Positions 20,627 to 57,599 of a stretch of DNA of 60,943 nucleotides are shown here, in pieces. The notes beneath the pieces were generated by a model. It saw nothing but the letters and a program-made list of their open reading frames with translations. It was not told where the DNA came from and did no database searches. The stretch is from the NCBI GenBank assembly GCA_964639185.1, contig CAZXCN010000005.1:1-60943 (forward strand), written 5' to 3'. This DNA comes from an uncultured Candidatus Saccharibacteria bacterium (GTDB lineage: Bacteria > Patescibacteriota > Minisyncoccia > Phycocordibacterales > UBA9973). Numbering within the stretch: position 1 is the stretch's first letter; each line of letters begins with the position of its first letter. The position numbers and the translations under genes were made by a program.

Positions 20627-20629
20627 TAA

Positions 20630-22030: not shown

Positions 22031-22040
22031 TAAAAAAAAT

Positions 22041-23923: not shown

Positions 23924-23925
23924 TT

Positions 23926-25056: not shown

Positions 25057-25063
25057 ATCTCGC

Positions 25064-25087
25064 TTCGTAAAATAGCTCCTCTCACAG
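25064..25087 (+). repeat. 24-nt exact repeat, copy 1 (TTCGTAAAATAGCTCCTCTCACAG), 5' arm of a long hairpin
   Basis: Identical 24-mer at 27772-27795. GTAAAATAG (25067-75) pairs with CTATTTTAC (25163-71). Confidence 0.8.
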
Positions 25088-25222
25088 GACACGCGTAAAA
25101 TTCTGGTGAATTTTCTGCTCTGCTCGGCCTCAGTCAGGCCTGCGCAAGTTCCTGCTCAAGGACTATTTTACTCCGCTCGATTTTATGGAATAAAATCAAT
25201 AAAAAATTTTAAAAATAAAAAT

Positions 25223-25741
25223 ATGAAAAAAGTAAACGTATCAATAATAATGGGTTCCGATTCAGACTTGGGTGTGATGCAAGACGCAGGCAAAATACTT
25301 GCCGAGTTTAATGTGCCTTATGAGATCACTGTAGTATCTGCACACCGTACACCGGATGTGTTGGTGAAATATGCAGTAAAGGCCAAAGCCCGTGGAATCA
25401 AAGTGATCATTGCTGGTGCTGGTGGTGCTGCGCACTTGCCAGGTATGGTAGCTTCTATGACTACATTGCCTGTAATAGGTGTACCAATAAAAACAAAATC
25501 TATGGATGGTATAGATTCTTTATTATCTATAGTGCAGATGCCGCCAGGTGTACCAGTTGCAAGTGTGGCGGTGAATGGAGCAAAGAATGCAGGGCTACTT
25601 GCTTGCCAGATGTTGGCCATGTCGGATAAAAAGTTAGATAAAAAGATTTTTGATTACAAGGATAGTATGAATAAAGAGGTGAAGGGTAAAGCAAAGAAAT
25701 TATTAGACCAAGGTTACGAAGAATATTTAAAAAATATGTAA
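25223..25741 (+). CDS. purE: N5-CAIR mutase (class I PurE)
   Basis: [32 protein letters not shown] at 25223 preferred, because the upstream extension is intergenic repeat sequence. Confidence 0.9.
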
Positions 25742-25744
25742 TTT

Positions 25745-26785: not shown

Positions 26786-26815
26786 TATATCTATATAATC
26801 AAAATAAAATTTATT

Positions 26816-27778
26816 ATGGAAATAGAAACAATCACACAACATGTAGGAGATGTATTAAAAGGAACAGATTTGCAAGGCCTAGGTAAGAAGGTTGTAGGTA
26901 AAGTACGCGATATTTATATTGCTGATGATACTATTGCTCTTGTCTCTACTGACCGCCATTCATCATTCGACCGTATCATTGCGCACATACCTTTCAAAGG
27001 GGAAGTGCTAAATCAAATCAGTGCATGGTGGTTCGAGCAAACAAAAGATATTGTGCCGAATCATGTCGTATCTGTCCCAGACCCGGCTGTCCTTGTTGCA
27101 AAGAAGTTGACTCCACTACCTATCGAGGCTGTTATGCGTGGGTATCTGACTGGCACTACTAATACTTCGGTATGGACACATTACAAAGCTGGCAAGCGTG
27201 ATTTTGGTAATTTTATTTTGCCGGATGGTTTGCAAAAGAATTACAAGCTCGACAAGCCTGTATTTACCCCTTCTACAAAGAGCGATGATCATGATGTAAC
27301 CATTTCCCCACAAGACATGATTATGCAAGGTGTTATATCTAAAGAAGTTTTAGATAAGGTGGAAGATTATGCAACAGCACTTTTCCTGCGTGGGCAAGAA
27401 ATTGCACTCTCAAAAGGTTTGATCCTTGTGGATACAAAGTACGAGTTTGGTACTGATGAAAATGGTGAAATATATCTAATAGATGAGATTCATACTCCAG
27501 ATTCTTCACGATATTGGAAGGCTGGTACTTATCAGGAACGCATTGATGCAGGTGAAGAGCCTGAATATTTCGACAAAGAGTTTGTACGTATCTGGCTCAG
27601 TCAGCAGTGTGATCCATACACAGTAGAAGTTCTTCCAGAAATTCCAGCCGACATGGTGGCCGAACTTTCTCGCAGATATATTGAAATATACGAAACGCTA
27701 ACAGGTAAAGTCTTCGAACACGATTTTTCTATGTCATCTGTAGATCGTATAAAAATTAATTTGAAGATCATTTCGTAA
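26816..27778 (+). CDS. purC: SAICAR synthase (long form)
   Basis: GKVRDIY, VSTDRHSSFDR, LILVDTKYEFG, DEIHTPDSSRYW. Confidence 0.9.
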   Translation: MEIETITQHVGDVLKGTDLQGLGKKVVGKVRDIYIADDTIALVSTDRHSSFDRIIAHIPFKGEVLNQISAWWFEQTKDIVPNHVVSVPDPAVLVAKKLTPLPIEAVMRGYLTGTTNTSVWTHYKAGKRDFGNFILPDGLQKNYKLDKPVFTPSTKSDDHDVTISPQDMIMQGVISKEVLDKVEDYATALFLRGQEIALSKGLILVDTKYEFGTDENGEIYLIDEIHTPDSSRYWKAGTYQERIDAGEEPEYFDKEFVRIWLSQQCDPYTVEVLPEIPADMVAELSRRYIEIYETLTGKVFEHDFSMSSVDRIKINLKIIS

Positions 27779-27795
27779 AATAGCTCCTCTCACAG
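27772..27795 (+). repeat. 24-nt exact repeat, copy 2, overlapping the purC stop codon
   Basis: Identical to 25064-25087. GTAAAATA (27775-82) pairs with TATTTTAC (27799-806). Confidence 0.8.
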
Positions 27796-27816
27796 AATTA
27801 TTTTACTTCATTAATA

Positions 27817-27842
27817 ACTCGGCCTTTTGGTCGAGTTTTTTT
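27817..27842 (+). terminator. intrinsic terminator after purC
   Basis: ACTCGGCC-TTTT-GGTCGAGT plus a T-run. Confidence 0.65.
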
Positions 27843-27844
27843 AT

Positions 27845-27873
27845 TTGCAGATTGGGGTGAAATTGCATATAAT
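27845..27873 (+). promoter_or_regulatory. candidate purB promoter (TTGCAG, 17-nt spacer, TATAAT), with the ATG 6 nt downstream (leaderless)
   Basis: Read directly from the sequence. Confidence 0.5.
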
Positions 27874-27879
27874 CGCTAT

Positions 27880-29265
27880 ATGATAAACGATGCAATAAAT
27901 CCACTAGATGGACGATACTACGATAGGACACGGGCACTAGCTTCATACTTCTCCGAGAGTAGCTTGATGAAATACAGGGTTATGATGGAATGTGAATTCT
28001 TAATATGCTTATCTGAAGCAAGGGTAACTCACTTAAGAAAATTTACAATAAATGAAATCAAAGCTATTCGTATACTTTATGAAAATTGGAATGATGCATC
28101 ATACAAAGCTATCAAGAAGTTCGAGGCTACAACTAACCACGATGTAAAAGCTGTAGAATATTTTATAAAAGAATCCCTTGGCAAAACCCTCCAAAAGGGC
28201 GGGCAGGCAAGTTTGAAGGACTCTATCGAGTGGGTACACTTTGGACTAACATCAGAAGATACTAATAATGTTTCGTATGCTTTAATGCTTGCAAATTCTG
28301 TTAGGAGTGTCATGGTCCCAAGCATGTTGGAGATCCACACTGTTATGAAAAGTTATGCCAAGAATTATGCCCACACTCCTATGCTTGCACGTACTCATGG
28401 ACAGTCAGCTTCACCTACAACAGTGGGTAAAGAGTTTGCTGTATTTGCCGACAGATTACGCAGACAAATATATTTCCTTAAACAATTCAAAGTAATGGCA
28501 AAGCTAAATGGTGCTACTGGTAACTACAATGCATTTGTTGCAGCCTACCCAAAGGTAAATTGGCCAGCATTTACAAAGAAGTATATTGCACATATTGGTA
28601 AGGTTGCTGGTGTTAAATTATGCCCGAATTTATTAACTACTCAGATCGAACCACACGATACTTATGCCGAGCTTGCCGACAATATTCGCCGTGCCAACAC
28701 TATCCTTATTGATTTCAATCAAGACATCTGGAGATATATTTCAGATGGATATATAACTCAAAAGCCAAAGGCTGGTGAAGTAGGCTCATCTACAATGCCA
28801 CACAAAGTAAACCCGATAGACTTTGAGAATAGTGAAGGGAACCTAGGTATTGCGAATGCTTTATTTGAATTCTTTTCACGCAAGCTACCAGTATCACGCC
28901 TTCAGCGCGACTTGTCCGACTCTACAGTATCACGTGCTTTTGGAACTGCATTTGGTCATGCGTATCTAGGCTATGTAATGTGTCTAAAAGGTTTGAGTAA
29001 AATTTATATAAATGAAAATAAAATAAAGGAGGACTTATTGGCGCACCCCGAGGTTGTAGCCGAAGCTATACAGACAGTAATGAGAAGGGAGGGCTTGCCA
29101 GTACCGTACGAAGCCTTGAAGGAGATCACCCGTGGCAAGGTTGTGACTATGGAAGACTTCGCACAGTTTATCGATGGTCTAAAAGTCTCACCAGAAATCA
29201 AAAAAGAATTAAAAAAGTTTACCCCATTAACATACATAGGTATTGCTAATAAGTTAGCAAAATAA
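27880..29265 (+). CDS. purB: adenylosuccinate lyase
   Basis: Fumarase/lyase family signature GSSTMPHKVNP, TSEDTNN, 461 aa. Confidence 0.95.
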   Translation: MINDAINPLDGRYYDRTRALASYFSESSLMKYRVMMECEFLICLSEARVTHLRKFTINEIKAIRILYENWNDASYKAIKKFEATTNHDVKAVEYFIKESLGKTLQKGGQASLKDSIEWVHFGLTSEDTNNVSYALMLANSVRSVMVPSMLEIHTVMKSYAKNYAHTPMLARTHGQSASPTTVGKEFAVFADRLRRQIYFLKQFKVMAKLNGATGNYNAFVAAYPKVNWPAFTKKYIAHIGKVAGVKLCPNLLTTQIEPHDTYAELADNIRRANTILIDFNQDIWRYISDGYITQKPKAGEVGSSTMPHKVNPIDFENSEGNLGIANALFEFFSRKLPVSRLQRDLSDSTVSRAFGTAFGHAYLGYVMCLKGLSKIYINENKIKEDLLAHPEVVAEAIQTVMRREGLPVPYEALKEITRGKVVTMEDFAQFIDGLKVSPEIKKELKKFTPLTYIGIANKLAK

Positions 29266-32197: not shown

Positions 32198-32271
32198 CCA
32201 CCCTTAGCTCAGTTGGTTAGAGCACAGAGCTTATACCTCTGGGGTCCATGGTTCGAATCCATGAGGGTGGA
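32198..32271 (+). tRNA. tRNA-Ile with genomically encoded UAU anticodon
   Basis: Cloverleaf by hand: acceptor CCACCCT/AGGGTGG, D arm GCTC...GAGC, anticodon stem CAGAG/CTCTG with loop CTTATAC, T arm CATGG-TTCGAAT-CCATG, discriminator A. CCA is not encoded. Confidence 0.8.
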
Positions 32272-32279
32272 CACTAAAC

Positions 32280-34765: not shown

Positions 34766-35338
34766 ATGCCAGAGATAATACAAACAGACGAGGCGATAGT
34801 ACTCCTTGTTCGGAACGGGGATTCCGAGCTTTTTGGTGAGCTTGTCAAAAGATACGAGTCCAAGCTCAAACGCTATGCATACAAATTTCTTTTCGATCGC
34901 AATGATATAGACGACCTAGTTCAAGATGTGTTCATAAAGGCATATACTAATTTACAGAGCTTTGATAATGATAGGAAATTCTCGCCATGGATTTATAGAA
35001 TTGCACACAATACATATGTGAATGCCATAAAGAAGAAACTGACTGAAAAAGTATTTCCTATTGATTTCGATACATTCTTGCCACACCCGCGCGCTTTGGA
35101 GACATCAGATAATGAAAGTGAAAAGGAATATACCCGCACAATGCTCGATAAAAATATTAAATTAATTGATACTAAATATCGCGAACCATTAATTTTGTAT
35201 TTTTACGAGGAAATGGATTATAAAGAAATTGCCGAAGTGTTAGGTGTACCCGTGTCGACAGTAGGGGTACGTATTAAAAGGGGTAAAGAAAAATTAAAAG
35301 AAATATTATCAAAAAATAATTTTGTTTATGAAAAATAA
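34766..35338 (+). CDS. ECF (group 4) RNA polymerase sigma factor
   Basis: Region 2 (DDLVQDVFIKAY, FSPWIYRIAHN) and region 4 (MDYKEIAEVLGVPVSTVGVRIKRG). Confidence 0.85.
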   Translation: MPEIIQTDEAIVLLVRNGDSELFGELVKRYESKLKRYAYKFLFDRNDIDDLVQDVFIKAYTNLQSFDNDRKFSPWIYRIAHNTYVNAIKKKLTEKVFPIDFDTFLPHPRALETSDNESEKEYTRTMLDKNIKLIDTKYREPLILYFYEEMDYKEIAEVLGVPVSTVGVRIKRGKEKLKEILSKNNFVYEK

Positions 35339-42431: not shown

Positions 42432-42656
42432 GAATATATTATATAACTATTTTATAAAAAAATGAATTGCGGAGTTAGTGAGTTCAGTACCCACACTCTC
42501 AACTGTTATAAGGCTACTCTAGCACATTTTAGGGTGTCTCATTAAGGCACATGAGTCAGAACCTGTTTATTGAGGGATAAGGGTATTTTTACATTAATGA
42601 GACAAATGAGACACTTTTTGCCCCACATCCCATAACCCTGTTTAGTCAAAATATAC

Positions 42657-42685
42657 TTGACAAATAAGGATATTTATCCTAAACT
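42657..42685 (+). promoter_or_regulatory. candidate promoter of helicase 1 (TTGACA, 17-nt spacer, TAAACT)
   Basis: Read directly. Confidence 0.45.
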
Positions 42686-42705
42686 ATGAAAAAATTATTT
42701 GACAG

Positions 42706-44478
42706 ATGAAGATAACACTTTACGAGTATCAAGAAATTGCATTGGCGAAAGTGCTTCATGCACTCCGTAAATTTGGTAAAGCTTTAATGGTGATGGCCAC
42801 AGGCCTTGGTAAGACGATAGTTTCAGTTAAAATAGCTGAGTTATTTCTCTCGTCTAATCCAGGAAAGCGTATTCTATTTCTTTCCCATGATAATGGTATT
42901 TTAGAGCAATCTTTTAAAAAGTACGAAAGTATTTTAGGAAAGGATTATTCTTATGCACGTTTTTTTGGAAAAAAGAAAAATTGGAATGCGGATAAATACG
43001 ATATCGTATTTGCAACATTTCAATCAAGTCCGCATAAATTATTTAATGCGGATCACTTTGACCTCATCATTGTGGATGAAAGTCATCATAGTCAAGCAGA
43101 TACTTACTTTGAGTGCCTAGAGTATTTTAGGCCAAAGTGGAAACTTGGCATGACTGCGACACCTGACCGAGAAGATGAACAAGATATTCGTTCTATTTTT
43201 GGAAAAGAGGTGGTAAATTATGACCTACCAGAGGCGATGGCTAAAGGTTGGCTTACTCCTGTTGAATACAGAGTGCTTTCTGACGGACTGGACGTAGAAA
43301 AGTTAGAAGCAATTTGTTATGAAGTGCTTGTAGAAAATGTACGAATTACTCAAGGGCAACTTAACGAGCGAATATTTATTCGTTCTCGAAGCGAAGAACA
43401 GTGTAAGCAAATTGTAGATTATACCCAAAATGGGTTAAAAGCAATTGTGTTTTGTCGTAATATTGCTCATTTGGAACACGTTATGGAAATTTTGCCTAAC
43501 AGTGTCGTGGTTCATTCCGAACGTAGTGATGCTGGAAATGACGAAGCCGAAGAAATGTATAGATCAGGTAAAGCATCACATATACTTGTTGTAGATAAAT
43601 ACAATGAAGGTAAAGATTTGCCGGATACTGACCTACTTGTGTTCCTCCGTGATACTGATTCCTATCGGATATGGGCGCAACAACTTGGAAGAGGGCTACG
43701 TTTATTTCCTGGAAAAGATAAAGTAACTGTATTGGATTTTGTGGCAAACATTGATCGTATTAAAAATGTGTACAAACTCATAACACAAATTGGCCAATTT
43801 AATCCTGCGGGAGAGATAGACTCACTGTTGAAGCTTGACTCGCCACTGCATTTAGAAGCAAAAAACTTTACTTTTGATTTTACTTCTGAAATTGTAAACA
43901 TTTTTTCAGTTCTGGAAAGAATTGCTTTACCTTACTATAAAACATGGCAAGAGGCTTCGGTTGGAGTTCAGTTTTTGGGAATACAGTTTGAACCTAAATA
44001 CAGAGAGAAATATAAACAAGACCCAAGACTTCCATCATCCCCAGATCGCCACTATGAAGATTTTCCCGGTTGGCCAATGTTTTTAAGAAACGAGAATTAT
44101 CAAGTATCCTTTAATTTTGTAAAAAATTATAAAACTTGGCAAGAAGCTTCTTTGGCTGCAATTACATTAGGAATAACGAGTAAGCGTGAATATGAGAAGA
44201 ATAGCAAGTTGGATAAAAAATTTCCCTCAACTCCACGTACATACTACAAAGATTTTCCTGGATGGGGTCTTTTTTTAGGAACACTTCGCACTCCAAATGT
44301 AAAGAATAAGGCTTATTATCCTAATATTGAAGAAGCTTCTATTGCTGCCATTAAAATTGGTATTCAGAGCAAAGGATCTTACACTGAAATGTATAAGTTA
44401 GATGAAAAATTGCCATCTACTCCTCATAAATATTATGAAAATTTCCCAGGCTGGCCAAAATTTCTCGGTAAAATCTAA
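42706..44478 (+). CDS. SF2 (ResIII/DEAH-type) helicase with three C-terminal ~55-aa repeats
   Basis: Motif I MATGLGKT, II IVDESHH, III MTATPDR, VI QQLGRGLR. C-terminal repeats Y-K-T-W-Q-E-A-S...LGI...Y...D.(R/K)LPS.P...Y.DFPGW..FLG. Confidence 0.8.
   Translation: MKITLYEYQEIALAKVLHALRKFGKALMVMATGLGKTIVSVKIAELFLSSNPGKRILFLSHDNGILEQSFKKYESILGKDYSYARFFGKKKNWNADKYDIVFATFQSSPHKLFNADHFDLIIVDESHHSQADTYFECLEYFRPKWKLGMTATPDREDEQDIRSIFGKEVVNYDLPEAMAKGWLTPVEYRVLSDGLDVEKLEAICYEVLVENVRITQGQLNERIFIRSRSEEQCKQIVDYTQNGLKAIVFCRNIAHLEHVMEILPNSVVVHSERSDAGNDEAEEMYRSGKASHILVVDKYNEGKDLPDTDLLVFLRDTDSYRIWAQQLGRGLRLFPGKDKVTVLDFVANIDRIKNVYKLITQIGQFNPAGEIDSLLKLDSPLHLEAKNFTFDFTSEIVNIFSVLERIALPYYKTWQEASVGVQFLGIQFEPKYREKYKQDPRLPSSPDRHYEDFPGWPMFLRNENYQVSFNFVKNYKTWQEASLAAITLGITSKREYEKNSKLDKKFPSTPRTYYKDFPGWGLFLGTLRTPNVKNKAYYPNIEEASIAAIKIGIQSKGSYTEMYKLDEKLPSTPHKYYENFPGWPKFLGKI
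43933..44475 (+). repeat. three tandem protein-level repeats (starts about 43933, 44128, 44314)
   Basis: WQEAS / FPGW..FL pattern recurs three times in the translation. Confidence 0.8.
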
Positions 44479-44490
44479 ATTTGTATATTC

Positions 44491-44560
44491 TAATAAAAGA
44501 AAAAAAGAGGCTTTAGAGCACTCTAAAGGGTATCAACTATGTTGATGCCCTTTCTTTATT
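44491..44560 (+). repeat. 70-nt conserved 3' element, copy 1 (two hairpins plus T-run)
   Basis: 66 of 70 nt identical to 48038-48107. Hairpins CTTTAGA-GCAC-TCTAAAG and GGGTATCAAC-TAT-GTTGATGCCC. Confidence 0.85.
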
Positions 44561-44571
44561 TTATTGGCATT

Positions 44572-44598
44572 AAAAAAAACGCTGGGGTTAGCAGCGTT
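44572..44598 (-). terminator. intrinsic terminator of the sigma-factor gene
   Basis: AACGCTG-N7-CAGCGTT with a T-run on the minus strand. Confidence 0.7.
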
Positions 44599-44609
44599 CT
44601 CCTATAGTT

Positions 44610-45959
44610 TTACATGAGAGGTATTGATTTACGAGTCAAATCCTGAAGTTCAAGGTAGCTTTCAATATTAGCAGTCAGTTTTAGTTCATCCATAGGACAC
44701 TTGTTAATTTTAAGTAATCTCCATATACGATTAACTATTTGTCTGATACGTTCTCTTGATAAATCAAATTTTGAACCAATGGAGTAGAAGGTGTAGATTT
44801 CATCTCCATCAAGTTGGTAATACATTGCAAACATTGATTTATCACGATCATCTATTTTCAAGCTTTTAACTGTTGAAATAAAATGGCTAATTTCATCAAT
44901 CTTAGATTCAAGTATTTCTTTTGCTTCCAACAGTTGGTGGGGTGATGCATCAATTGGATCCAGTATAAAATCACTAATCGTGGAGCTTGATTCATCTTCA
45001 TCAGACACTGATTCATCTAAAGAATTCATTTGAGTATGCGTCAAATCAACCAATATCCTAAGGTTTCCAATTTCAGCAGTATGAACAACCAGTTCTTCTT
45101 CAGTCGGTTCTCTTCCTAATTCCTGAGAAAGTTTATGATGGACCTTCCTTAGCTTTATTAGATCTTCCTGTATGTGTACAGGAAGACGGATAATACTTCC
45201 TAAATCCTGAATGGTACGCTGGATCTTTTGCCGTATCCATTGAGTTGCATAGGTGCTAAAAGCAAAACCCAAAGAAAAATCAAATTTTTCAATTGCTTCA
45301 ATGAGGCCGAAATTGCCTTCTTGAACAAGATCCATTAAATCAAAGCAGGGGTTGTGATGATATTTTTTAGCAATAGAAACTATTAACTTTTGATTATGTT
45401 CTATTATTTTGTTTCGAGCTTTAATATCACCACTTTGAGCTGCCTTAATAAGATCATTGAAAACTTCTCGGCTTAAAATTTTATGTTTTCCGCCATTTTT
45501 CATAAACCAATCAAAAGTTTCATCATTTATTACTTTATGAATTTTAGTGGTTTCGTAAAAGTGACTTGAAAACCCTGAGGAATTTCCGAGACTTATAGTG
45601 CCGGAATGATGTTGAGGTTTAGAACTTTTTTCGTTCCTTGCCCTAGTTGCTGTGGTGATTTGTCGTATCTTATCGGGCGTGAGCTCTGTAAGACCTTCTT
45701 TGGCTTGCTGATCGTTTAATCTGGGATATCTAACTATGATACCGTGCTGATTGAAAAAATTGCCAAGTATGTGCATAAGATTAATAAATACTTTACCTTT
45801 CTTTGTAGAATAAGAGATTATCTGACCTACCTGATTAGTTAATATGTATTTATTCGTTTGGGCATCAGCCAAGATATCCTTGGATTTTTGTGATAACTCC
45901 AGTGGTAAAAAACCAAAGGGAGTAAGGTTTTCGTCTATTGGTTTTATTTGCATAGTCAA
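44610..45959 (-). CDS. RpoD-family (group 1/2-like) sigma-70 factor with a ~190-aa unassigned N-terminal region
   Basis: Region 2 DLVQEGNFGLIEAIEKFDFSLGFAFSTYATQWIRQKIQRTI, region 3 IRLPVHIQEDL...LGREPTEEEL, region 4.2 LSRERIRQIVNR. Confidence 0.85.
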   Translation of the reverse strand: MTMQIKPIDENLTPFGFLPLELSQKSKDILADAQTNKYILTNQVGQIISYSTKKGKVFINLMHILGNFFNQHGIIVRYPRLNDQQAKEGLTELTPDKIRQITTATRARNEKSSKPQHHSGTISLGNSSGFSSHFYETTKIHKVINDETFDWFMKNGGKHKILSREVFNDLIKAAQSGDIKARNKIIEHNQKLIVSIAKKYHHNPCFDLMDLVQEGNFGLIEAIEKFDFSLGFAFSTYATQWIRQKIQRTIQDLGSIIRLPVHIQEDLIKLRKVHHKLSQELGREPTEEELVVHTAEIGNLRILVDLTHTQMNSLDESVSDEDESSSTISDFILDPIDASPHQLLEAKEILESKIDEISHFISTVKSLKIDDRDKSMFAMYYQLDGDEIYTFYSIGSKFDLSRERIRQIVNRIWRLLKINKCPMDELKLTANIESYLELQDLTRKSIPLM

Positions 45960-45976
45960 AGATTATTTTGATTATT

Positions 45977-46005
45977 ATCTTAACTTTAAAATGCAATTAT
46001 GTCAA
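45977..46005 (-). promoter_or_regulatory. candidate sigma-gene promoter (TTGACA, 17-nt spacer, TAAGAT on the minus strand)
   Basis: Read directly. Confidence 0.4.
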
Positions 46006-46047
46006 TACCTTCCTGTAATTTTACTTTTCTACAGAAAATAAATTTTC

Positions 46048-46076
46048 TTGACTATTCTAGGAAATAATGTTAAAGT
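46048..46076 (+). promoter_or_regulatory. candidate promoter of helicase 2 (TTGACT, 17-nt spacer, TAAAGT)
   Basis: Read directly. Confidence 0.4.
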
Positions 46077-46110
46077 TTGAAAAATTGAAAATTTAAAATA
46101 ATAGATCTAT

Positions 46111-48024
46111 ATGGTAATAGCTACAGAAACTCAAATTGTACCTTTTGATTATCAGCTTGAGTGTCTTGAGATACTTGAACGTACTGAAAAAATTGGTAGA
46201 AAAAAAGCCCTTGTAATTCTTGCAAGTGGTTTAGGAAAAACAATACTATCTGCGCTTTTTGTAAAGAGAAGATATTTGGATTTTACTAAAGTCCGATGCC
46301 TCTTTTTATGTCACCAGAATGATGTGCTCCAACAAGCTCAGCTTGAATACGAGCAAATCTTTCAAGGCGCCGTAAATTACGGCTTCTTTCATGGTGAAGA
46401 CAAGAGTGGTCTGGGTGCTAATATCTTATTTGCATCACTACAGACAATGAGGGATCATCTGGAAAAGTTTGATCCAAATGAATTTGATGTAATCATTGTT
46501 GATGAGACACATCATATCTACGCGGAAACATATGTACCCGTGGTGCATTATTTCCAACCTGAATTCTTGTTGGGAATCACAGCAACCCCTGATCGGATGG
46601 ATGAATTAGACATAAGAGATATCTACGGAGAGGAAGTATATAATCTTCCTCTTATAGAAGCCCTTATTAGAGGATTATTAACCCCAATTGATTATCGGTT
46701 AATGACAGATGAGATCAGTTTAAGTAAAGATGTCGAAACACCGTTAGGAAAATTAAGCATAGGTTCTTTGAACCGAACAATGTTTATCCCTAAGCGCGAC
46801 GATGAGATCACCCGGATCATTCAAGAGAAAATGTACGAGGTGAGCAATCCTCGGGTTATGATTTTTTGCTCTTCAATTGAGCATTGTGAGCAGATAGCAG
46901 GACTTCTTCCTAATGCTGTACCAATTCATTCGCGAATGAATCCAAATGATCGCAAGGTGCGTTTGGAGTTATTCAAACAAGGTATGTTTAATATGGCTGT
47001 TACAGTTGATATGTTTAACGAAGCTTTAAATATTCCGGAGGCTAATGTAATCGTTTTTCTGCGGTCTACTCAATCCATGACAGTGTATCTTCAGCAATTA
47101 GGGCGAGGGTTACGACCACAAGAAAACAAACCCAAGGTTCTCATTCTTGATTTTGTGGGTAATTGTGAACGTATATCTTTTATCTACAATCTATGGGAAA
47201 AAATTACCCAAGAAAGAGGAAAACGATTGCGTAAAGGACGTAGATGGCTCATCGAACCTTTTCTCTTAAATGTTGACGCTATTGATTTCAAGGAGAAAAT
47301 TTTTCCTTTAATTGATTACATCAATAATGTAAAGTTGGGATATTACTCCACTTGGCAAGAGGCCTCAGTGGTAGCAATGGGACTTGGAATAAAAGGTGTA
47401 ATGGATTATAAGATGAATTACAGGAAAGATCCTCGGCTCCCCGGCAATCCTCATGAGTACTACGAAGATTTCCCTGGATTTCCAATATTTCTTGAAAGTA
47501 AAAATCCAAAATATGCTAAGAAATATTCTACATGGCAAGAAGCTTCAGAAAAAGCAGTAAACCTAGAATTCGTAGACAAAAGAAGTTATCGGAAAGATTG
47601 TAAACTTGACTCAAGACTTCCAAAAAATCCAGATAGGTACTATAAAGATTTTCCAGGGTGGTTATTATTTTTGCAGACAGATACTTACAAAACTTGTAAT
47701 GAAGCTGCTATTGCTGCCCGAAAGTTAGGGATTAGATCATGTATCCAGTACAGCAGGGAAAAGTTATACAAACAAGATCCTAAATTACCTGCTGCCCCCG
47801 ATCAAATCTACACTGACTTTCCTGGCTGGGAAAAATTTCTTGGAACCGATGAAAGAGATTTTTACAAAACATGGCAGGAAGCATCAATTGCTGCAATTCA
47901 ATTAGGAATTAAAAATGGTAGGGAATATTCAAAGACTTATGGTCAAGACCCTTTTCTTCCTTTTCATCCAAGTATTCAGTATAAAGACTTTCCAGGATGG
48001 TCAAAATTTCTTGGAAAAAAATAA
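46111..48024 (+). CDS. SF2 (ResIII/DEAH-type) helicase paralog with four C-terminal ~55-aa repeats
   Basis: LASGLGKT, IVDETHH, ITATPDR, QQLGRGLR. Four WQEAS...FPGW..FLG repeats. Confidence 0.8.
   Translation: MVIATETQIVPFDYQLECLEILERTEKIGRKKALVILASGLGKTILSALFVKRRYLDFTKVRCLFLCHQNDVLQQAQLEYEQIFQGAVNYGFFHGEDKSGLGANILFASLQTMRDHLEKFDPNEFDVIIVDETHHIYAETYVPVVHYFQPEFLLGITATPDRMDELDIRDIYGEEVYNLPLIEALIRGLLTPIDYRLMTDEISLSKDVETPLGKLSIGSLNRTMFIPKRDDEITRIIQEKMYEVSNPRVMIFCSSIEHCEQIAGLLPNAVPIHSRMNPNDRKVRLELFKQGMFNMAVTVDMFNEALNIPEANVIVFLRSTQSMTVYLQQLGRGLRPQENKPKVLILDFVGNCERISFIYNLWEKITQERGKRLRKGRRWLIEPFLLNVDAIDFKEKIFPLIDYINNVKLGYYSTWQEASVVAMGLGIKGVMDYKMNYRKDPRLPGNPHEYYEDFPGFPIFLESKNPKYAKKYSTWQEASEKAVNLEFVDKRSYRKDCKLDSRLPKNPDRYYKDFPGWLLFLQTDTYKTCNEAAIAARKLGIRSCIQYSREKLYKQDPKLPAAPDQIYTDFPGWEKFLGTDERDFYKTWQEASIAAIQLGIKNGREYSKTYGQDPFLPFHPSIQYKDFPGWSKFLGKK
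47341..48021 (+). repeat. four tandem protein-level repeats
   Basis: YSTWQEAS...FPGFPIFL, YSTWQEAS...FPGWLLFL, YKTCNEAA...FPGWEKFLG, YKTWQEAS...FPGWSKFLG. Confidence 0.8.
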
Positions 48025-48037
48025 TTTGTACCTTCAC

Positions 48038-48107
48038 TAATAAAAGAAAAAAAGAGGCTTTAGATTGCTCTAAAGGGCATCAACTATGTTGATGCCCTTT
48101 CTTTATT
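48038..48107 (+). repeat. 70-nt conserved 3' element, copy 2
   Basis: See 44491-44560. The four differences all fall in the loop of hairpin 1, or convert a G-U pair to G-C in hairpin 2. Confidence 0.85.
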
Positions 48108-48197
48108 CTGTGTTTTTGAAAATACTTTTCCTGAATTCAAAAAACCGATAGGTGATTATCCTCATTTATTTTCATTGGTGAGGTCTTGAAATTATGA

Positions 48198-48398
48198 GAA
48201 TATATTGGAATCGGAATAATAGTATTTGGAAATATAATTCTGGCACTCCACATAACAAAGAAGAAACTACACCTGAGTAAAGCGTTTTATTTAATAATTT
48301 TTGCTCCAACGCTTTTAGCTATCGAACATATATTGTTTAAATATATGTTCGAACACGGGATCAATTGGAGTACCGCTGTAGGCTCTTTATTATGTTAA
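48198..48398 (+). pseudogene. possible 3' remnant of a membrane-protein gene (66 open codons, no start codon)
   Basis: Hand translation EYIGIGIIVFGNIILALHITKKKLHLSKAFYLIIFAPTLLAIEHILFKYMFEHGINWSTAVGSLLC-stop. Hydrophobic and TM-like. Preceded by an in-frame TGA. Confidence 0.3.
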
Positions 48399-48426
48399 AA
48401 ATTAAATAATTTGTTATACTTAAAAA

Positions 48427-48843
48427 ATGGACAAGACTAATGAATTTTCTTTTTTACTTAAACCATCAACTCACGGTGTTGGTGTTTTTGCGGCGCATGA
48501 TATTAAAATAAATACACCAATGCGTTTATTTGGAGATGCTAATCCTCGAAGAATTTTAAAAAAAGATGATATACCTGAAGAATTTAGAAATTTTTGCGCT
48601 GATAGGGGTGAGACAATGATTTGTCCTCCTGATTTCGGATATATGCCACATGGATGGTTTTTAAATCATTCGCAAAATTCAAACACTGAAACAAGGGGCG
48701 GGTATAATGAAAAAGATGGGTATAGTTTTTTTGCAAAAAAGGATATAAAAGCTGGTGAAGAAATTACTATAGATTACAACAACCTAGAGGAGACAGAAAA
48801 TTCAAAAGAGGATTATTATAAAAGTGACATTAATATTATATGA
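48427..48843 (+). CDS. SET-domain protein (putative protein-lysine methyltransferase)
   Basis: GVGVFAAHDI, FLNHSQNSN (NHS motif), GEEITIDYN. 138 aa. Confidence 0.7.
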   Translation: MDKTNEFSFLLKPSTHGVGVFAAHDIKINTPMRLFGDANPRRILKKDDIPEEFRNFCADRGETMICPPDFGYMPHGWFLNHSQNSNTETRGGYNEKDGYSFFAKKDIKAGEEITIDYNNLEETENSKEDYYKSDINII

Positions 48844-49103: not shown

Positions 49104-49193
49104 TGGCGGAGCCGGCGAGATTCGAACTCGCGAGGGCTTTTACACCCTGCCTCTTTAGCAAAGAGGTACGTTAGACCACTCTGACACGGCTCC
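49104..49193 (-). tRNA. tRNA-Ser (GCU), type II, CCA encoded
   Basis: Minus strand GGAGCCG...CCTCT-TTGCTAA-AGAGG, long variable arm, GCGAG-TTCGAAT-CTCGC, CGGCTCC-G-CCA. Confidence 0.85.
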
Positions 49194-49303: not shown

Positions 49304-49393
49304 GGAGGATTGGATGAGTGGTTTAAATCAACGGTTTACTAAACCGTCGAACCTTAATCGGTTCCGTGAGTTCGAATCTCACATCCTCCGCCA
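49304..49393 (+). tRNA. tRNA-Ser-like type II tRNA with ACU anticodon (A34), CCA encoded
   Basis: GGAGGAT/ATCCTCC acceptor, G73. Anticodon stem ACGGT/ACCGT with loop TTACTAA. Variable arm GAACC...GGTTC. T arm GTGAG-TTCGAAT-CTCAC. Confidence 0.75.
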
Positions 49394-52024: not shown

Positions 52025-53353
52025 CTATTTTTTACTTTTTTCAAGGCTAATATTTTTACTCGCTAAATAGACTTTACTCTTCAGACACCCAAGTAATTCT
52101 CGCTTCTCAATATCATTTCCTTCTTTCAATATATACTTTGCATATCCTCGTATATCAATATCAGGGATACTAATTTTTTCTTTAGTTCCTACCAGAAACT
52201 TTTGCATTTTAGAAAAGCGTTCAACATCTTCTTTTATCTTTTCTTTGATATAGATCTCATTGAGATCTATACTTTCTATGAGTAATTCAAATTGCTTCAA
52301 TAATTCTTTTTCTTCTATAGCACCACACTTACAATCTGGATCTCTGGCTCTTGTGCATCTATAGTAAACATAACGATGCACATTACCATTCTTTTGTTTC
52401 TTAAATTTCTCGTCAGCGGTGATACCCGATCCACATAGTCCACAAGTCATCATCTTAGTAAAAGCAAATTCTTTATTCTCTACTCGTAAGACATTACTTT
52501 TAATCTGCTCTTGAACTAGGTCAAAAAGTTCTTTTGTAATAAGTGGCTCGTGTTTACCTGTGTACCAATTACCTGACTTTTTAGGATACTCAAAAATTCC
52601 ATAATAGAATGGATTATCTAGTATTTTATAAATATTCCCTAAACTAAGATGTTTTTTGCCATATGCTGTTCTAAAGTTAAGATCAAATCTTAACCAGTTG
52701 TATACTTTTCTACCAGTCCAATGTTCGTGAGCAACTTTTTCAAACATCTTTTTAACTGTTGGAGCGCGCTCTGGGTCAACCAATGTTTCGCATTTTCTAT
52801 CCATTCGTTTTTCTTTTAAATATCCAGTTGGTGCAGGTGCAGGCCATAGTCCCATTTCGACTCTTGTTCGTAATCCTCGTTTTACGTTTACACTTTTGTT
52901 ATCATTCTCGAGCTTTGCTTGAGAACACAGAATCATGAGTAGAAACTTTTCATTTGGTGAGTTCTTAAAGTGTTGTCCGTATGTACGAATCTCCATGAGT
53001 AACTTTTGATCCATAAGGTCAACGATACTTCCAAGATCACCGGCATTACGAGAAAGACGATCAGGTGCCCATGTGAGTATTCCATTGAATCTACCTCGCC
53101 TGATATCTTCCAAAATTTCCTTGTATACGGGGCGTTGTCCTGATTCTTTTGCACTATGAGACTCACGCCTAATTTCTACAATTTCCAAACCATCTCGTTC
53201 GGCAAGATCAAGCATTTCTTTGACTTGTGAATCAATAGACAGGACTTGTTTTTCTTCTGATTCAGTTGATTTACGAGCATAAAGTACATATTTGATTTTT
53301 TGTAGTGGGGCAATGATTTCTTTGCCAATACGAGCTGATGTGTATATCTCCAT
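52025..53353 (-). CDS. large serine recombinase
   Basis: Resolvase catalytic domain YARKSTESEEKQVLSIDSQ, recombinase domain, and zinc-ribbon CGLCGS...YYRC. Confidence 0.9.
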   Translation of the reverse strand: MEIYTSARIGKEIIAPLQKIKYVLYARKSTESEEKQVLSIDSQVKEMLDLAERDGLEIVEIRRESHSAKESGQRPVYKEILEDIRRGRFNGILTWAPDRLSRNAGDLGSIVDLMDQKLLMEIRTYGQHFKNSPNEKFLLMILCSQAKLENDNKSVNVKRGLRTRVEMGLWPAPAPTGYLKEKRMDRKCETLVDPERAPTVKKMFEKVAHEHWTGRKVYNWLRFDLNFRTAYGKKHLSLGNIYKILDNPFYYGIFEYPKKSGNWYTGKHEPLITKELFDLVQEQIKSNVLRVENKEFAFTKMMTCGLCGSGITADEKFKKQKNGNVHRYVYYRCTRARDPDCKCGAIEEKELLKQFELLIESIDLNEIYIKEKIKEDVERFSKMQKFLVGTKEKISIPDIDIRGYAKYILKEGNDIEKRELLGCLKSKVYLASKNISLEKSKK

Positions 53354-53554
53354 ATATAATTAATGACAGAGAAAGAGCTTTTTGCTAAGCTATGCAGAGC
53401 TAAAAATACATTGCATACTCGCGTTGACAGCCTTAGCAAAACCATTGATTTGCGATACAATTTAGTAGAATAATTTCACAAAAAATGATATTATTTCTTT
53501 ACAAGTTAATATGTGTTGACCTAACCCCTTTGGTTTCCCAAAGGATATGGTTGA

Positions 53555-53703
53555 AAAACTCGCTACAAGATAAAAACCCCGTCGTCAGGGTTACTTGTAG
53601 CGAGTCACATCGGGAAACTGGTGTGGGTGATCTTCGGGTCATCGGCTTGGCGGCGGGATTTTTGTCTACCTGCCAAGTTTATTATTAAAACTCGCTACAA
53701 GAT
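53555..53703. promoter_or_regulatory. 17-nt direct repeats plus one inverted copy, bracketing a GC-richer structured segment
   Basis: AAAACTCGCTACAAGAT at 53555-71 and 53687-703. CTTGTAGCGAGT at 53594-605. Internal hairpins. Confidence 0.5.
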
Positions 53704-53704
53704 T

Positions 53705-54295
53705 ATGGACAAAGAAAAAATAATGAGTTGGGTAAACTCTCACAAAATACTCAGTGTTTTTATTGGTATTGTTTCTTTTATAATTATTATTGGTGTTATT
53801 ACTCCAAGTTCACCAAAAACAACTCCAACACCACAAGTTGCGACTACACCTCAAACATATGAGGATCGTATAAAAGCACTTGCAGTGAAAACAGGTACGA
53901 CTAACATATCGTACAAAGGTATTGAAGATGTAAAAGCAGATAGTAATCGACCAGAAGGATCTCGCATGATTACAGTTAGTTTGAATATTGGAGATTATTA
54001 TAATGCGAGTGCTTTGTATAAAAACACAGGAGAATTATCAGGAAAAATAATGCAAGAAACATTTGCATCAAATCCAAATGTATACGATGTTATCGTTTGG
54101 TATTATGCAGAAATGACTGATTCATACGGTAACAAAGAAAACAAAGTATTGATCTCACAAGGGATTGATAAAGATACATACCAGAAAATCAATTGGCAAA
54201 ATTTTGATAGCACCAAGCTCTGTGATTTATTGAAAACAGAAGGAACTAAAAACGGAGGCGAAACAGCATGTGTTGTATTAGCAAATATAAAGTAA
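53705..54295 (+). CDS. membrane-anchored/secreted hypothetical protein
   Basis: N-terminal TM (ILSVFIGIVSFIIIIGVI) followed by a Pro/Thr linker. ATG at 53705 preferred over the extension at 53621. Confidence 0.55.
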   Translation: MDKEKIMSWVNSHKILSVFIGIVSFIIIIGVITPSSPKTTPTPQVATTPQTYEDRIKALAVKTGTTNISYKGIEDVKADSNRPEGSRMITVSLNIGDYYNASALYKNTGELSGKIMQETFASNPNVYDVIVWYYAEMTDSYGNKENKVLISQGIDKDTYQKINWQNFDSTKLCDLLKTEGTKNGGETACVVLANIK

Positions 54296-54396
54296 AGAGA
54301 TTTTTTAGAAAATTATTCTATAAGAATAATACTTTCATTGTGAAGATATTTATCAATATCCCAACACAGTCAAAGAAACAAAAACCTTATACACCC

Positions 54397-54426
54397 AAAA
54401 AGCGACTCGAACAGAAGTCGCTTTTT
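54397..54426. terminator. bidirectional terminator
   Basis: AGCGACT-N8-AGTCGCT flanked by A and T runs. Confidence 0.65.
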
Positions 54427-54437
54427 GATTAGTGTAT

Positions 54438-55919
54438 TTAATCTACAGTTACATAATCTGAATAATAAAGGGTGTCGTTACCGCAAGAGATTATCCATGT
54501 TGAATCCCTCGAATGTTTTTCTAGTGTTGAATTTATGAGAAGCGAGAATGCATCCGCAAGGTCATCATGTTTTTCAACTCCAAAACCAACAAGCTCTCGT
54601 ATCAGATCTTCACATCCATGTCTTGGAAACTTAATGATTCCAGACTTGATAGACGTTGAAGTTAAAGACAAGCGAGTTCTTTTATCTCCTTTAGGCTTTA
54701 CTGATTCCGCTTTTACGCCATTTAATTCAAGCATCTGTGGTAGTGCTTCTTGATACGATACGCTTTCGACAAACAATGTATCTGTGTATCTCGGCATTTG
54801 TGTTTCTTTAAAGTTTTTCATTAAATCAACTTGTGCAGGAAAATTAAGTTTTTGAGCAATTGGATTTGGAAGAATATATATTCTCATTTTTTCTCTACGA
54901 CCATAAATATGAGCAGAGACAATCGTTGTAAAATCTGCTGAATCTTTTGTTGAAATAGCAAGATCAACACCAGCATATGTACCACGATATGCTTTATGAC
55001 TTTTCCCTGGTAACTCATCGTAGAATTGAATCCATTCAGAATAAATCACTTGATCATCACTTGGGATGATACGGAGTAAGTACTCTCGTTGCCATGATAT
55101 CTCACTTGCAACATTTAATTTCTCATCTTCAATGTCTTTCATAGTCGGGTACTTTCCAAGCCATAAACATACATCATCTTGGTCAAGCAATGGGTACCGA
55201 CTGAAAGTTCCTTTTGACCTATTGTTTTCAATATCGTCCTTGATTCGCATGATAAGAGAGTCTTCGTGCAAAAGGTTCCCAACGATGATTAGGCGTGTCC
55301 TACGGTCTCCCGCAGGTGCAACCTCTCCATATAGCCATTGGTACGTCTTATCTCGTCCCTCGCGTGTTTTGGTGGACTGTACGTCCTCTACGTCGTCGCA
55401 GATAATAAGGTCTGGTCTATGCTCATTATGTCTCGCTCCACGGATACTTTGTTCAGTTGAAGCAACGGTGATACGAGCACCATGCTTTTTAAAGACTAAA
55501 GAAAATGAACCCCACTCATCGCTCTCTTCTTGAAATGGTCCAAGATCTTTTTTAAGAAGATCATTATCTTCAAGCTCACTTTTAATGTTCATCATATGTT
55601 GTTTGGCTTGTATTCTTGTCTGACAAAAAATCATACAAAATTTCTTTTGCTGTTTTCCAAGAATCGCCCAGATTGGATACGCAGTCGTCACCATAGTAGA
55701 CTTACCTGATCCACGAAAGGCAACTATGTATAAATTTTCAACAGCACTTTTTTCGAGATTATGAATAATCTCTTTTTGAAAGTCTGCAGTTTCGTATTTT
55801 ACATAATGGGCATAGTAAAAGTGAAAGAAGTACAAAAAGCTATCTTTGGTGATAGAAGTTCGTACTAACTTATCTTTCATCATTCGATTTACCAAACTAT
55901 TTTCAATTATTTTGTTCAT
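54438..55919 (-). CDS. phage terminase large subunit
   Basis: Walker A AFRGSGKST, Walker B LIICDDVED, C-terminal nuclease-like half, 493 aa. Confidence 0.8.
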   Translation of the reverse strand: MNKIIENSLVNRMMKDKLVRTSITKDSFLYFFHFYYAHYVKYETADFQKEIIHNLEKSAVENLYIVAFRGSGKSTMVTTAYPIWAILGKQQKKFCMIFCQTRIQAKQHMMNIKSELEDNDLLKKDLGPFQEESDEWGSFSLVFKKHGARITVASTEQSIRGARHNEHRPDLIICDDVEDVQSTKTREGRDKTYQWLYGEVAPAGDRRTRLIIVGNLLHEDSLIMRIKDDIENNRSKGTFSRYPLLDQDDVCLWLGKYPTMKDIEDEKLNVASEISWQREYLLRIIPSDDQVIYSEWIQFYDELPGKSHKAYRGTYAGVDLAISTKDSADFTTIVSAHIYGRREKMRIYILPNPIAQKLNFPAQVDLMKNFKETQMPRYTDTLFVESVSYQEALPQMLELNGVKAESVKPKGDKRTRLSLTSTSIKSGIIKFPRHGCEDLIRELVGFGVEKHDDLADAFSLLINSTLEKHSRDSTWIISCGNDTLYYSDYVTVD

Positions 55920-55924
55920 ATATT

Positions 55925-56338
55925 TTATTTTTTGTTAATTCTTTTAATAGATTTCGATTTTGTAATCGAAGCAAGCTTAAGAGCGTTACGGACAATTTTT
56001 GCTTGTGACGGAGTGAGTGCTTCACTTTCTTCTTTTGTTGTGATTTCAAGTTTGTTCTTGTAGTTGTCGTTTCGGTGACGGAGCCAGAAACTAATGGCAG
56101 GATAATTCTTTTCTTTTATGAGTGTTAGCAACTGGCTTTCACTCATGTCGTTCACCAACGCTACACCGTCTTTGAGTGCCTGATCCATTTTCTTACAGAA
56201 TGATTGATCATCTTTTCGCCAGCGATAGACACTATTACGAGAGACACCTGTTTTTTCACAAGCGACTTGAATAATTGGTACCTTGGTCAGTTCTTCAAAA
56301 AACTGATCTTGTAATTTATTCTTTTTCATAATGTTCAA
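55925..56338 (-). CDS. HTH protein, putative terminase small subunit
   Basis: HTH VACEKTGVSRNSVYRWRK. Position immediately upstream of the large terminase. Confidence 0.5.
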   Translation of the reverse strand: MNIMKKNKLQDQFFEELTKVPIIQVACEKTGVSRNSVYRWRKDDQSFCKKMDQALKDGVALVNDMSESQLLTLIKEKNYPAISFWLRHRNDNYKNKLEITTKEESEALTPSQAKIVRNALKLASITKSKSIKRINKK

Positions 56339-57599
56339 TAGTTGCTTTATTATCAGTCATGGCTTCGTACCGCTTGATAATCAAATCGCAAAAGCGAGGC
56401 TCGAGTTCACAGCCATAAACTTTTCGACCAAGTTGTTCTCCTGCAAGGAGAGTACTACCTGACCCGAGGAAACTATCCAGAATAATTTCACCTGGTTTAG
56501 TGCATCGTTTGATAGCTTTCTCATGAAGCGTGATCGGCTTTGAAGTGGCATGTTGGTAATCTTTTGCAGATAGACGCTTTGCAGTCCAAATTTCTAAAAA
56601 GTCATCGACTTGCTCAATAAGATCATTACCTGTACCAAATTCTTTGTTCATCACTTCATTGAGATCCATCATTGATTCTGATAAATATGGTCTGCCACGA
56701 ATTCCATACACAGCTGGTTCGTATGCTTTATTGCAATAAATTTTAGGTACAGGATTTTGAGAATTCTTCAACCACAAACACACTCGTTTATTACTAATAC
56801 CAAATGAGCGATATACATCTTGAATCAAACCAATATAAATTTGGTCACAATAATAGAAGACATGAGTACTAGGATTCGATACAGCAAGTGCACAGCCGAG
56901 ACTATCACGAATGAAAGTTTTGTATTCTTCAAAAGTACGAGAGTCTTTGACGCTTCCTCCATAATTTTGATTTCCGCCTATGCCACCGCCATAATCAATT
57001 TCAAGATTGTAGACAGGATCACTGTAAATCATGGAGGCGCGCTCGTTGCCAAGTAATCTTGTGAGAGTTTCTTGTTTAGTTGAGTCGCCACAAATAACTC
57101 TGTGCTTGCCGAGTCTGATAATGTCACCGAGTTTAGTTACTGGATCAACAATCTTTGCTAATTCTTTTTCTACATCAAATGAATCTTCTTTAATTTCTTT
57201 ATCTTTATCCCAGAATTTTGCAAGCTCCATACTATCGAACCCTGCGAAGGAGAGGGTCTCCATATCAAATGACTCAAGCAAGTCATAATCCCAATCACCG
57301 CCGAGCTTGTTTGAGCCAATCAAGTATTCTTTCGATTCTTTTTCTGTGAGGTTACGATTAGGTACACGAATATCAATAAGTTCATTTCCTCGACCAAGTA
57401 ATTGGAGGGCACGAATGCGTTGATGTCCCGCAAGAATAGCCCCATTATAATCCACGGCTGGGATTTCAACGAGGTTAAACTTTTTGAGACTTCTAGTAAG
57501 GTCTGACATCTGTTTGTCAGATATTTTACGAGGGTTGATCTCTTGGGGAATTAGATCATCTACTCGCTTTTGGACAGTCGTCCATGATAGCTTTTTCAT
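56316..57599 (-). CDS. ParB-like nuclease domain fused to an N6A/N4C DNA methyltransferase
   Basis: ParB motif ILAGHQRIRAL, MTase motif IV SDPVYN, motif I DSFLGSGSTLLAGEQLGRK. Confidence 0.8.
   Translation of the reverse strand: MKKLSWTTVQKRVDDLIPQEINPRKISDKQMSDLTRSLKKFNLVEIPAVDYNGAILAGHQRIRALQLLGRGNELIDIRVPNRNLTEKESKEYLIGSNKLGGDWDYDLLESFDMETLSFAGFDSMELAKFWDKDKEIKEDSFDVEKELAKIVDPVTKLGDIIRLGKHRVICGDSTKQETLTRLLGNERASMIYSDPVYNLEIDYGGGIGGNQNYGGSVKDSRTFEEYKTFIRDSLGCALAVSNPSTHVFYYCDQIYIGLIQDVYRSFGISNKRVCLWLKNSQNPVPKIYCNKAYEPAVYGIRGRPYLSESMMDLNEVMNKEFGTGNDLIEQVDDFLEIWTAKRLSAKDYQHATSKPITLHEKAIKRCTKPGEIILDSFLGSGSTLLAGEQLGRKVYGCELEPRFCDLIIKRYEAMTDNKATIEHYEKE

Follow-up and report, generated by a model that had tools for sequence, protein, structure and literature searches.

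Why does a gene for a sigma-70-family factor lie between two helicase genes, and which of the three genes belong together? The question is raised by a 60.9-kb contig from a wastewater metagenome (contig CAZXCN010000005.1 of assembly GCA_964639185.1, assigned to an uncultured Candidatus Saccharibacteria bacterium). The window analyzed here is this entire contig of 60,943 nucleotides. Two genes encoding superfamily 2 (SF2) helicases, here called helicases 1 and 2, stand on either side of the sigma gene, which is on the opposite strand. An initial annotation, made from the sequence alone, had described them as a helicase-sigma-helicase cassette. The open reading frames (ORFs), motifs and repeat counts that it gave for the three genes agreed with the ORF list and the translations. 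The three genes and the region between the sigma gene and helicase 2 are as follows.

42706-44478, plus strand: helicase 1, a clean ORF of 590 amino acids (aa); SF2 (ResIII plus Helicase_C) with three INT_rpt units
44610-45959, minus strand: sigma, a clean ORF of 449 aa from a TTG start; RpoD-like, apparently of a helicase-linked paralogue clade
45960-46110, no strand: divergent intergenic region of 151 bp between sigma and helicase 2, with back-to-back promoter-like sites
46111-48024, plus strand: helicase 2, a clean ORF of 637 aa; SF2, predicted DNA-translocase type, with four INT_rpt units

The sigma start given in the database is the ATG at 45953, which yields 447 aa instead of 449 aa. The same gene order was reproduced in an independent Logan assembly (L001) from the same sample.

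Recurrence of the sigma-helicase 2 pair

Gene neighborhoods were compared at 78 loci fetched around relatives of the helicases, and a neighbor-joining (NJ) tree was built from 87 helicase cores. The set of helicase loci came from an alignment-based scan; a locus scan by helicase 2 alone returned only two remote fragments. Each scan covered the best 80 matches, ORFs in the fetched loci were stop-to-stop translations, and all trees were NJ trees without support values. The fetched loci come from metagenome-assembled genomes, whose taxon labels are unreliable.

The results showed that the clade of helicase 2 contained 20 Genome Taxonomy Database (GTDB) loci, in 17 of which a divergent sigma gene lay immediately upstream (or the order was sigma-helicase-helicase). 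Two of the other three loci were cut by contig ends and the third, L010, was a true exception, giving 17 of 18 informative loci. From the sigma side, nine relatives were looked up and eight were informative. A helicase 2-type gene was adjacent and divergent in six of the eight (L076, L086, L087, L088, L089 and L173), L090 and L171 had no helicase partner, and L172 was uninformative because of a contig end. As a control, none of 80 loci of other sigma-70-family genes had such a helicase within 8 kb; these controls, taken from the sigma-side contig scan (alignment A6), were almost only canonical rpoD genes from many phyla, and the patterns were generic. The comparison of helicase neighborhoods that the initial annotation had suggested therefore revealed a recurrently adjacent sigma gene. 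Across the 18 linked loci, the helicase and the sigma were the only gene families common to all.

In three separate lineages, sigma and helicase were joined in a single protein. The fusion P0203, found in three assemblies, combines sigma regions 1.2 to 4 with ResIII/Helicase_C and INT_rpt in 1049 aa. The fusion at L051 consists of a sigma, a helicase and four HNH_repeat units, and that at L069 of a DEAH/HA2 helicase, a sigma and DnaA_C in a single 1380-aa ORF. Some pairs in a clade labeled Saccharibacteria were co-directional and nearly abutting, with gaps of 28 bp (L071) and 148 bp (L041). The pair adjoined rnc or the canonical rpoD in several genomes.

Judged by gene order, what is conserved is a divergent unit of two genes, sigma and helicase 2, which recurs across Patescibacteria (candidate phyla radiation, or CPR, bacteria) and is sometimes fused. 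The proposed three-gene cassette was thus borne out for the linkage of sigma to helicase 2 but not for helicase 1 as a third member.

A protein of ~350 aa with Sigma70_r4 and HARE-HTH domains was a semi-recurrent third neighbor of the pair in relatives; none was present in the window. It was found at the following positions, and weaker copies were seen in L053, L015 and L019.

L009, 6994-8049: Sigma70_r4 plus HARE-HTH protein
L087, 5323-6363: Sigma70_r4 plus HARE-HTH protein
L089, 6758-7825: Sigma70_r4 plus HARE-HTH protein
L011, 7994-9058: Sigma70_r4 plus HARE-HTH protein

The sigma factor and the helicases

We think that the window sigma is not the housekeeping rpoD product but probably an alternative sigma factor from a fast-evolving clade of RpoD paralogues. 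It scored below every NCBIfam cut-off for RpoD and RpoS (for RpoD, 187.4 against 354 for TIGR02393, 183.4 against 572 for NF006666, and 171.9 against 555 for NF004208). When the sigma domains were placed in an NJ tree, it fell among the long-branched helicase-linked sigmas, and the canonical RpoDs of Patescibacteria formed a compact separate clade. On two contigs, L017 and L037, a linked sigma was accompanied within 10 kb by a canonical RpoD in which Pfam detected regions 1.1 and 1.2. Within the 61-kb window, which is a part of the genome, there was no second RpoD-like gene, only an extracytoplasmic function (ECF) sigma gene at 34766-35338.

Regions 2, 3 and 4 of the window sigma matched Pfam above the cut-offs (PF04542, 62.7 bits; PF04539, 26.1 bits; PF04545, 26.8 bits), and the Pfam models r1_2 and r1_1 gave no match. 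NCBIfam alignments and alignments with SigA/RpoD chains from the PDB spanned residue ~145 (region 1.2) to residue ~417, at ~40% identity. The parts of the protein map to the gene as follows.

44709-45527, minus strand: sigma regions 1.2 to 4.2, residues 145-417
45729-45899, minus strand: sigma N-terminal domain, residues 21-77; predicted diverged region 1.1
44613-44708, minus strand: C-terminal extension specific to the family, forming a helix past region 4.2 (from family alignments)

The N-terminal ~190 aa had been taken for a novel region. Family alignments and profile comparison instead identify it as a predicted diverged region 1.1 plus a linker, because the profile of the N-terminal domain matched canonical region 1.1 in hhalign (probability 91.9%, E 6.9e-7). 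A word-indexed protein search returned sigma relatives that all had at most 41% identity, none of which covered the N terminus. Full-length relatives (P0241, P0243, P0244, P0245 and P0284), which align from residue ~12-22 onward, came from an exhaustive search across 1.84 billion representatives. The 66-column profile of the N-terminal domain returned nothing at E <= 0.01 in a word-indexed search, since the domain is too short for a database of that size.

According to the family alignments, these sigmas have an N-terminal domain of ~60 aa, a variable low-complexity linker and regions 1.2 to 4.2, followed by a conserved Trp directly past the region 4.2 recognition helix and an amphipathic C-terminal helix. 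Residues for core binding and for reading the -35 element are conserved, and region 2.3/2.4 (-10 element and melting) is relaxed. In Escherichia coli numbering, W433 was replaced in 6 of 26 linked sigmas versus 3 of 119 canonical ones, and T440 was kept in 12 of 26 versus 114 of 119; the window sigma has both W433Q and T440Q. Linked sigmas often carried extra DNA-binding modules (L009, L012, L016, P0246, L045, L014 and L069). DnaA domain IV was present in one to four copies, sometimes with a second region 4; the other modules were an RNA polymerase alpha subunit C-terminal domain (L045) and an HNH_repeat (L014).

The two helicases are 39% identical end to end (E 2e-139). The motifs GLGKT, DE(S/T)HH, TATPDR and QQLGRGLR are readable in both translations and invariant in 25 homologues. 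Pfam ResIII (118 bits in helicase 1 and 109 bits in helicase 2) and Helicase_C (31 and 58 bits) were detected, and Walker A, DExH, motif III, motif VI and both RecA-like domains are present, as in SF2 proteins of the ResIII/Helicase_C kind. An AlphaFold model of helicase 2 (predicted local distance difference test [pLDDT], 83.8) has two RecA-like domains, in agreement with the fold matches. Its best matches were SauUSI, RadD, a fragment of type I HsdR and XPB (Foldseek E 2.5e-20 to 1e-12), all of which are DNA translocases. Judged from this model, helicase 2 is a predicted SF2 motor of the double-strand-DNA-translocase type. No nuclease or other effector domain was found in the helicases by Pfam.

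The helicases end in repeat arrays.

43930-44475, plus strand: INT_rpt array of helicase 1, three units of ~55-64 aa each
47332-48021, plus strand: INT_rpt array of helicase 2, four units

The initial annotation had likened the repeat to one in some phage, giant-virus and integrase-associated proteins and had proposed a profile or structure search. The search assigned the repeat to a known Pfam family, INT_rpt (PF14882, formerly named PHINT_rpt), with 65.7 bits for helicase 1 and 90.4 bits for helicase 2 (cut-off, 26.5). The seven units of the two helicases align with one another, and those of helicase 2 were each modeled as a small four-helix unit. A two-unit model (pLDDT 87) had no significant fold match in the PDB; in BFVD it weakly matched SF2 helicases of giant viruses (E 6e-4 to 1e-2), consistent with the suggested resemblance.

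A possible joint role at RNA polymerase

Computational evidence establishes the domains, the paralogy, the linkage and the fusions, as well as the coexistence with a canonical rpoD in relatives. Going by these sequence comparisons, we tentatively favor a reading in which the sigma and the DNA translocase cooperate at RNA polymerase to serve a promoter set of their own, a real possibility that falls somewhat short of probable. The sigma would bind core RNA polymerase and direct it to promoters whose -35 element is near consensus. The helicase would physically work with the sigma holoenzyme on DNA, where the INT_rpt repeats may tether it either to the DNA or to the sigma, and the ATP-driven motor would remodel promoter DNA or the polymerase during opening, escape or recycling. 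That the sigma binds polymerase, that the two proteins are physically coupled and what the ATPase does are our inferences; the fusions and the near-obligate adjacency are the arguments for physical coupling. The sigma and helicase 2 genes would be co-expressed from back-to-back promoters in their shared 151-bp region. Promoter-like sites lie upstream of all three genes.

42657-42685, plus strand: promoter-like site of helicase 1, TTGACA-17-TAAACT, consensus match only
46005-45977, minus strand: promoter-like site of sigma, TTGACA-17-TAAGAT
46048-46076, plus strand: promoter-like site of helicase 2, TTGACT-17-TAAAGT

These similar TTGAC(A/T)-17-TAAnnT sites are present where the initial annotation had placed them, but the region held 27 such sites versus 23.2 +/- 5.2 in shuffles, which is not above chance. 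For this reason, only the positions of the three sites are suggestive. An inverted pair GTCAA...TTGAC was frequent in the divergent intergenic regions (L009, L014, L037, L053, L076 and 45960-46110 of the window) and could represent two back-to-back -35 boxes or an operator. No enrichment of DnaA boxes was seen in these regions.

Both proteins resemble known families from which they differ in other respects. The sigma is like group 1 and 2 sigma-70 factors (RpoD/SigA, RpoS and SigB type) in its regions 1.2 to 4.2 (~40% identity), its predicted region 1.1-like domain and its retained -35 residues. It is unlike them in scoring below the RpoD/RpoS cut-offs, in belonging to a separate, fast-evolving clade, in being paired with a helicase, and in the Trp after region 4.2 and the C-terminal helix, to which relatives add further modules. 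The helicases have ResIII, Helicase_C and intact ATPase motifs, and SauUSI, RadD, HsdR and XPB are the best fold matches of helicase 2. They lack the phospholipase D (PLD) or other nuclease, a DUF3427-type reader, HsdM/HsdS and the zinc finger and C-terminal region of RadD, and have INT_rpt repeats instead. Neither the PLD nuclease nor the modified-base reader of a SauUSI-type enzyme was found, the PADLOC match covering only positions ~215-570 of models that are 945-953 positions long. The RadD model NF053632 gave 104.3 and 108.8 bits against an equivalog cut-off of 720. The SF2 helicases of giant viruses (Bodo saltans virus, Terrestrivirus and Klosneuvirus), compared by means of the two-repeat model, have the same architecture of helicase plus repeats, but the BFVD matches are weak and we know of no sigma partner for them.

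RapA/HepA and HelD, SF2- and SF1-type motors on bacterial RNA polymerase, offer a proposed functional analogy; there was no meaningful sequence match to RapA (model score, 16.1 bits against 576), and no genetic pairing or fusion with a sigma is known to us for RapA or HelD. The textbook sigma-70-type holoenzyme opens promoters without ATP. An ATPase is coupled to promoter opening by XPB/Ssl2 in TFIIH and by AAA+ activators with sigma-54. XPB chains, including those in TFIIH and in pre-initiation complexes, were among the fold matches of helicase 2, and unlike the sigma-54 system, the window proteins have no AAA+ domain. A TFIIH- or sigma-54-like role for the window pair is speculative. The broader proposition, that a sigma-70-family factor is the obligate partner of an ATP-driven SF2 translocase, with promoter opening or escape in the style of TFIIH/XPB or of sigma-54 and its activators, conserved in Patescibacteria and sometimes built as a single polypeptide, strikes us as decidedly unlikely.

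We searched the literature on INT_rpt/PF14882, on sigma plus helicase in Patescibacteria, CPR or Saccharibacteria, and on sigma plus DnaA domain IV, and the pairing was not described there. Each part is a new member of a family already known, and the pairing is undescribed in the literature that we found. Patescibacteria are a very large, mostly uncultured group whose regulation has been little studied experimentally. The recurrent, sometimes fused pair suggests helicase-assisted transcription control in this group and points to an undescribed layer of such control. It also gives a testable context to "integrase repeat-containing" helicases and long sigma-70 paralogues, which are abundant but unannotated.

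Several points weigh against joint action at the polymerase. The linkage is not universal, as L010, L090 and L171 have no partner, and most members of the repeat-less helicase clade labeled Saccharibacteria lack a sigma within 10 kb. A melting defect as a general property of the linked sigmas was considered but not adopted, W433 being kept in 20 of 26. The branches in the NJ trees are long, in addition to carrying no support values. No RNA-seq run that holds the locus was found, genes like those of defense islands or prophages lie near some copies, and co-regulation alone could explain a divergent pair.

An alternative is that the pair is a regulator and its target only. The sigma would then be of a stress or DNA-damage type and a RadD-like helicase its main regulated target, with no contact between the proteins. 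This is unlikely, though it deserves to be taken seriously. The divergent layout with back-to-back promoter-like sites, the resemblance of the helicase core to the repair helicases RadD and XPB, and the look of the sigma as a group 2-style RpoD paralogue would all fit. The three independent sigma-helicase fusions, on the other hand, argue for action in one complex, and the DNA-binding add-ons of linked sigmas, together with similar repeat modules on the helicases, suggest joint work on DNA.

Two other explanations, a role in defense and carriage by a mobile element, are minority views, weaker than joint action at RNA polymerase, and both stay alive because of the recurrence of a recombinase near the pair and the defense-like neighbors at L009. 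If the pair served in defense, the helicase would scan DNA for a foreign feature and the sigma would switch on an effector or an abortive program. We consider this quite improbable; were it true, the pair would be a new sigma-based sensor system. SauUSI is the best PDB fold match, and in PADLOC the helicase cores score best against type IV methyl-directed restriction enzymes (136-180 bits). The PADLOC check that had been proposed did return matches for the three proteins, but to generic helicase and sigma models only. A sigma-like protein, MzaA, is already known from one defense system, the MZA anti-phage system, and the sigma domain of the window protein matches its models (127 bits in PADLOC and 176.6 bits in NCBIfam). 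That match is to the generic sigma core, its NF041931 score of 176.6 lying below the cut-off of 800, and no Mza partner genes were seen beside the pair, PADLOC having covered the three proteins only. At L009 the pair lies among Mrr_cat, PIF1-like helicase, methylase and reverse-transcriptase genes, and prophage-like genes are found nearby in the window and in relatives. Set against this, there is no nuclease or effector domain in the pair or its conserved neighbors, the PADLOC and NCBIfam matches of the generic core are far below the family cut-offs, the near-obligate pair looks vertical rather than patchy across a deep clade, and its location beside rnc or canonical rpoD in several genomes also argues against defense.

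Slightly less probable still is that sigma and helicase or helicases are the cargo of an integrative element or prophage and serve its transcription or replication. A prophage-like patch begins at 52 kb (52025-57599), with a large serine recombinase, LOOT RNA, a weak terminase-like gene and a DNA methylase, so that recombinase, terminase-like and methylase genes lie 4-9 kb to the right. Helicases with INT_rpt repeats occur in giant viruses, and the helicase and sigma matches in PHROG, which are generic, point the same way. Close homologues of this recombinase (570-720 bits) occur within 10 kb of the pair in five relatives, listed here, and the 80 control loci gave one weak match.

L088, 4731-6092: recombinase homologue
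L089, 1202-2518: recombinase homologue
L009, 1520-2899: recombinase homologue
L053, 1363-2685: recombinase homologue
L062, 6107-7540: recombinase homologue

The position and side of the recombinase relative to the pair, however, differ in every locus, and no recombinase is among the families common to the 18 linked loci. In the window, the nearest recombinase is 4 kb from the pair, past two tRNA-Ser genes and an ABC transporter, and the contig left of the pair is ordinary chromosome (SecY, a pur operon, FtsH, tmRNA and RecG). No att-like direct repeats were found around the pair, and GC content (~36%) is flat throughout without a compositional break; a place between att repeats, an integrase and a compositional break, the marks of mobile-element or prophage cargo, are thus not seen for the window pair.

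The initial annotation's fallback was a housekeeping rpoD with coincidental neighbors. The RpoD-like regions 1.1 (predicted) to 4.2 and the lack of another group 1-like sigma in the window would fit it, but it is refuted to the point of being extremely improbable by the recurrent adjacency (17/18 and 6/8 versus 0/80 in controls), the fusions, the canonical rpoD beside the linked sigma in L017 and L037, and the grouping of the window sigma, below the RpoD cut-offs, with linked paralogues.

Helicase 1, a repeated 3' element and the surroundings

The clade of helicase 1 is a sister clade that also bears INT_rpt repeats. Among its 24 other GTDB members, no sigma lay within 10 kb and no neighbor was conserved, and none of the close sigma relatives looked up had a helicase 1-type gene 3' of the sigma. 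For these reasons, the tail-to-tail arrangement of helicase 1 and sigma looks like a lineage-specific layout. Helicase 1 is nevertheless connected with the sigma-helicase theme by two observations: the P0203 fusion falls within the helicase 1 clade in the NJ tree, and a 71-nt element is shared by the 3' sides of the two helicase genes.

44490-44560, plus strand: 71-nt 3' element, copy 1, just 3' of helicase 1
48037-48107, plus strand: 71-nt 3' element, copy 2, just 3' of helicase 2

The two copies are 94% identical, compared with 39% for the helicase proteins. The element has two hairpins, and a T-run follows the 13-bp stem of the second (RNA fold z-score of the element, ~-4.2). It had no Rfam match, and its 29-nt hairpin core was absent from the other loci and metagenome contigs. 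One possibility is a terminator common to both genes whose copies gene conversion has kept similar; another is a small repeated element.

Upstream of helicase 1 lies a non-coding gap of 270 bp (42432-42705), which looks richer in G+C than its surroundings, contains no long ORF and has no Rfam match. To the right of helicase 2 are a SET-domain gene, two tRNA-Ser genes and an ABC transporter, so that the SET and tRNA genes previously described there were confirmed. A gene remnant reported just after the cassette could not be verified, as 48025-48426 has only ORFs of at most 45 aa. The features to the right are as follows.

48427-48843: SET-domain protein, stand-alone, 138 aa, directly downstream of helicase 2 (Pfam E 4.6e-13)
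49104-49193, minus strand, and 49304-49393, plus strand: tRNA-Ser pair, head to head (ARAGORN)
53518-53643: LOOT RNA (RF03000), in the prophage-like patch

The SET-domain protein had no homologue in any fetched locus except L001, which is the same genome. ARAGORN assigned the anticodon GCT to one tRNA-Ser and ACT, which is unusual, to the other. A tRNA-Ile gene with the anticodon TAT lies farther to the left, at 32198-32272 on the plus strand. A cluster of purL-, purF-, purD-, purK- and purB-like genes at 16833-29265 indicates de novo purine biosynthesis, a pathway usually absent from Patescibacteria; it shares the contig with a sigma and helicases whose relatives are all from Patescibacteria.

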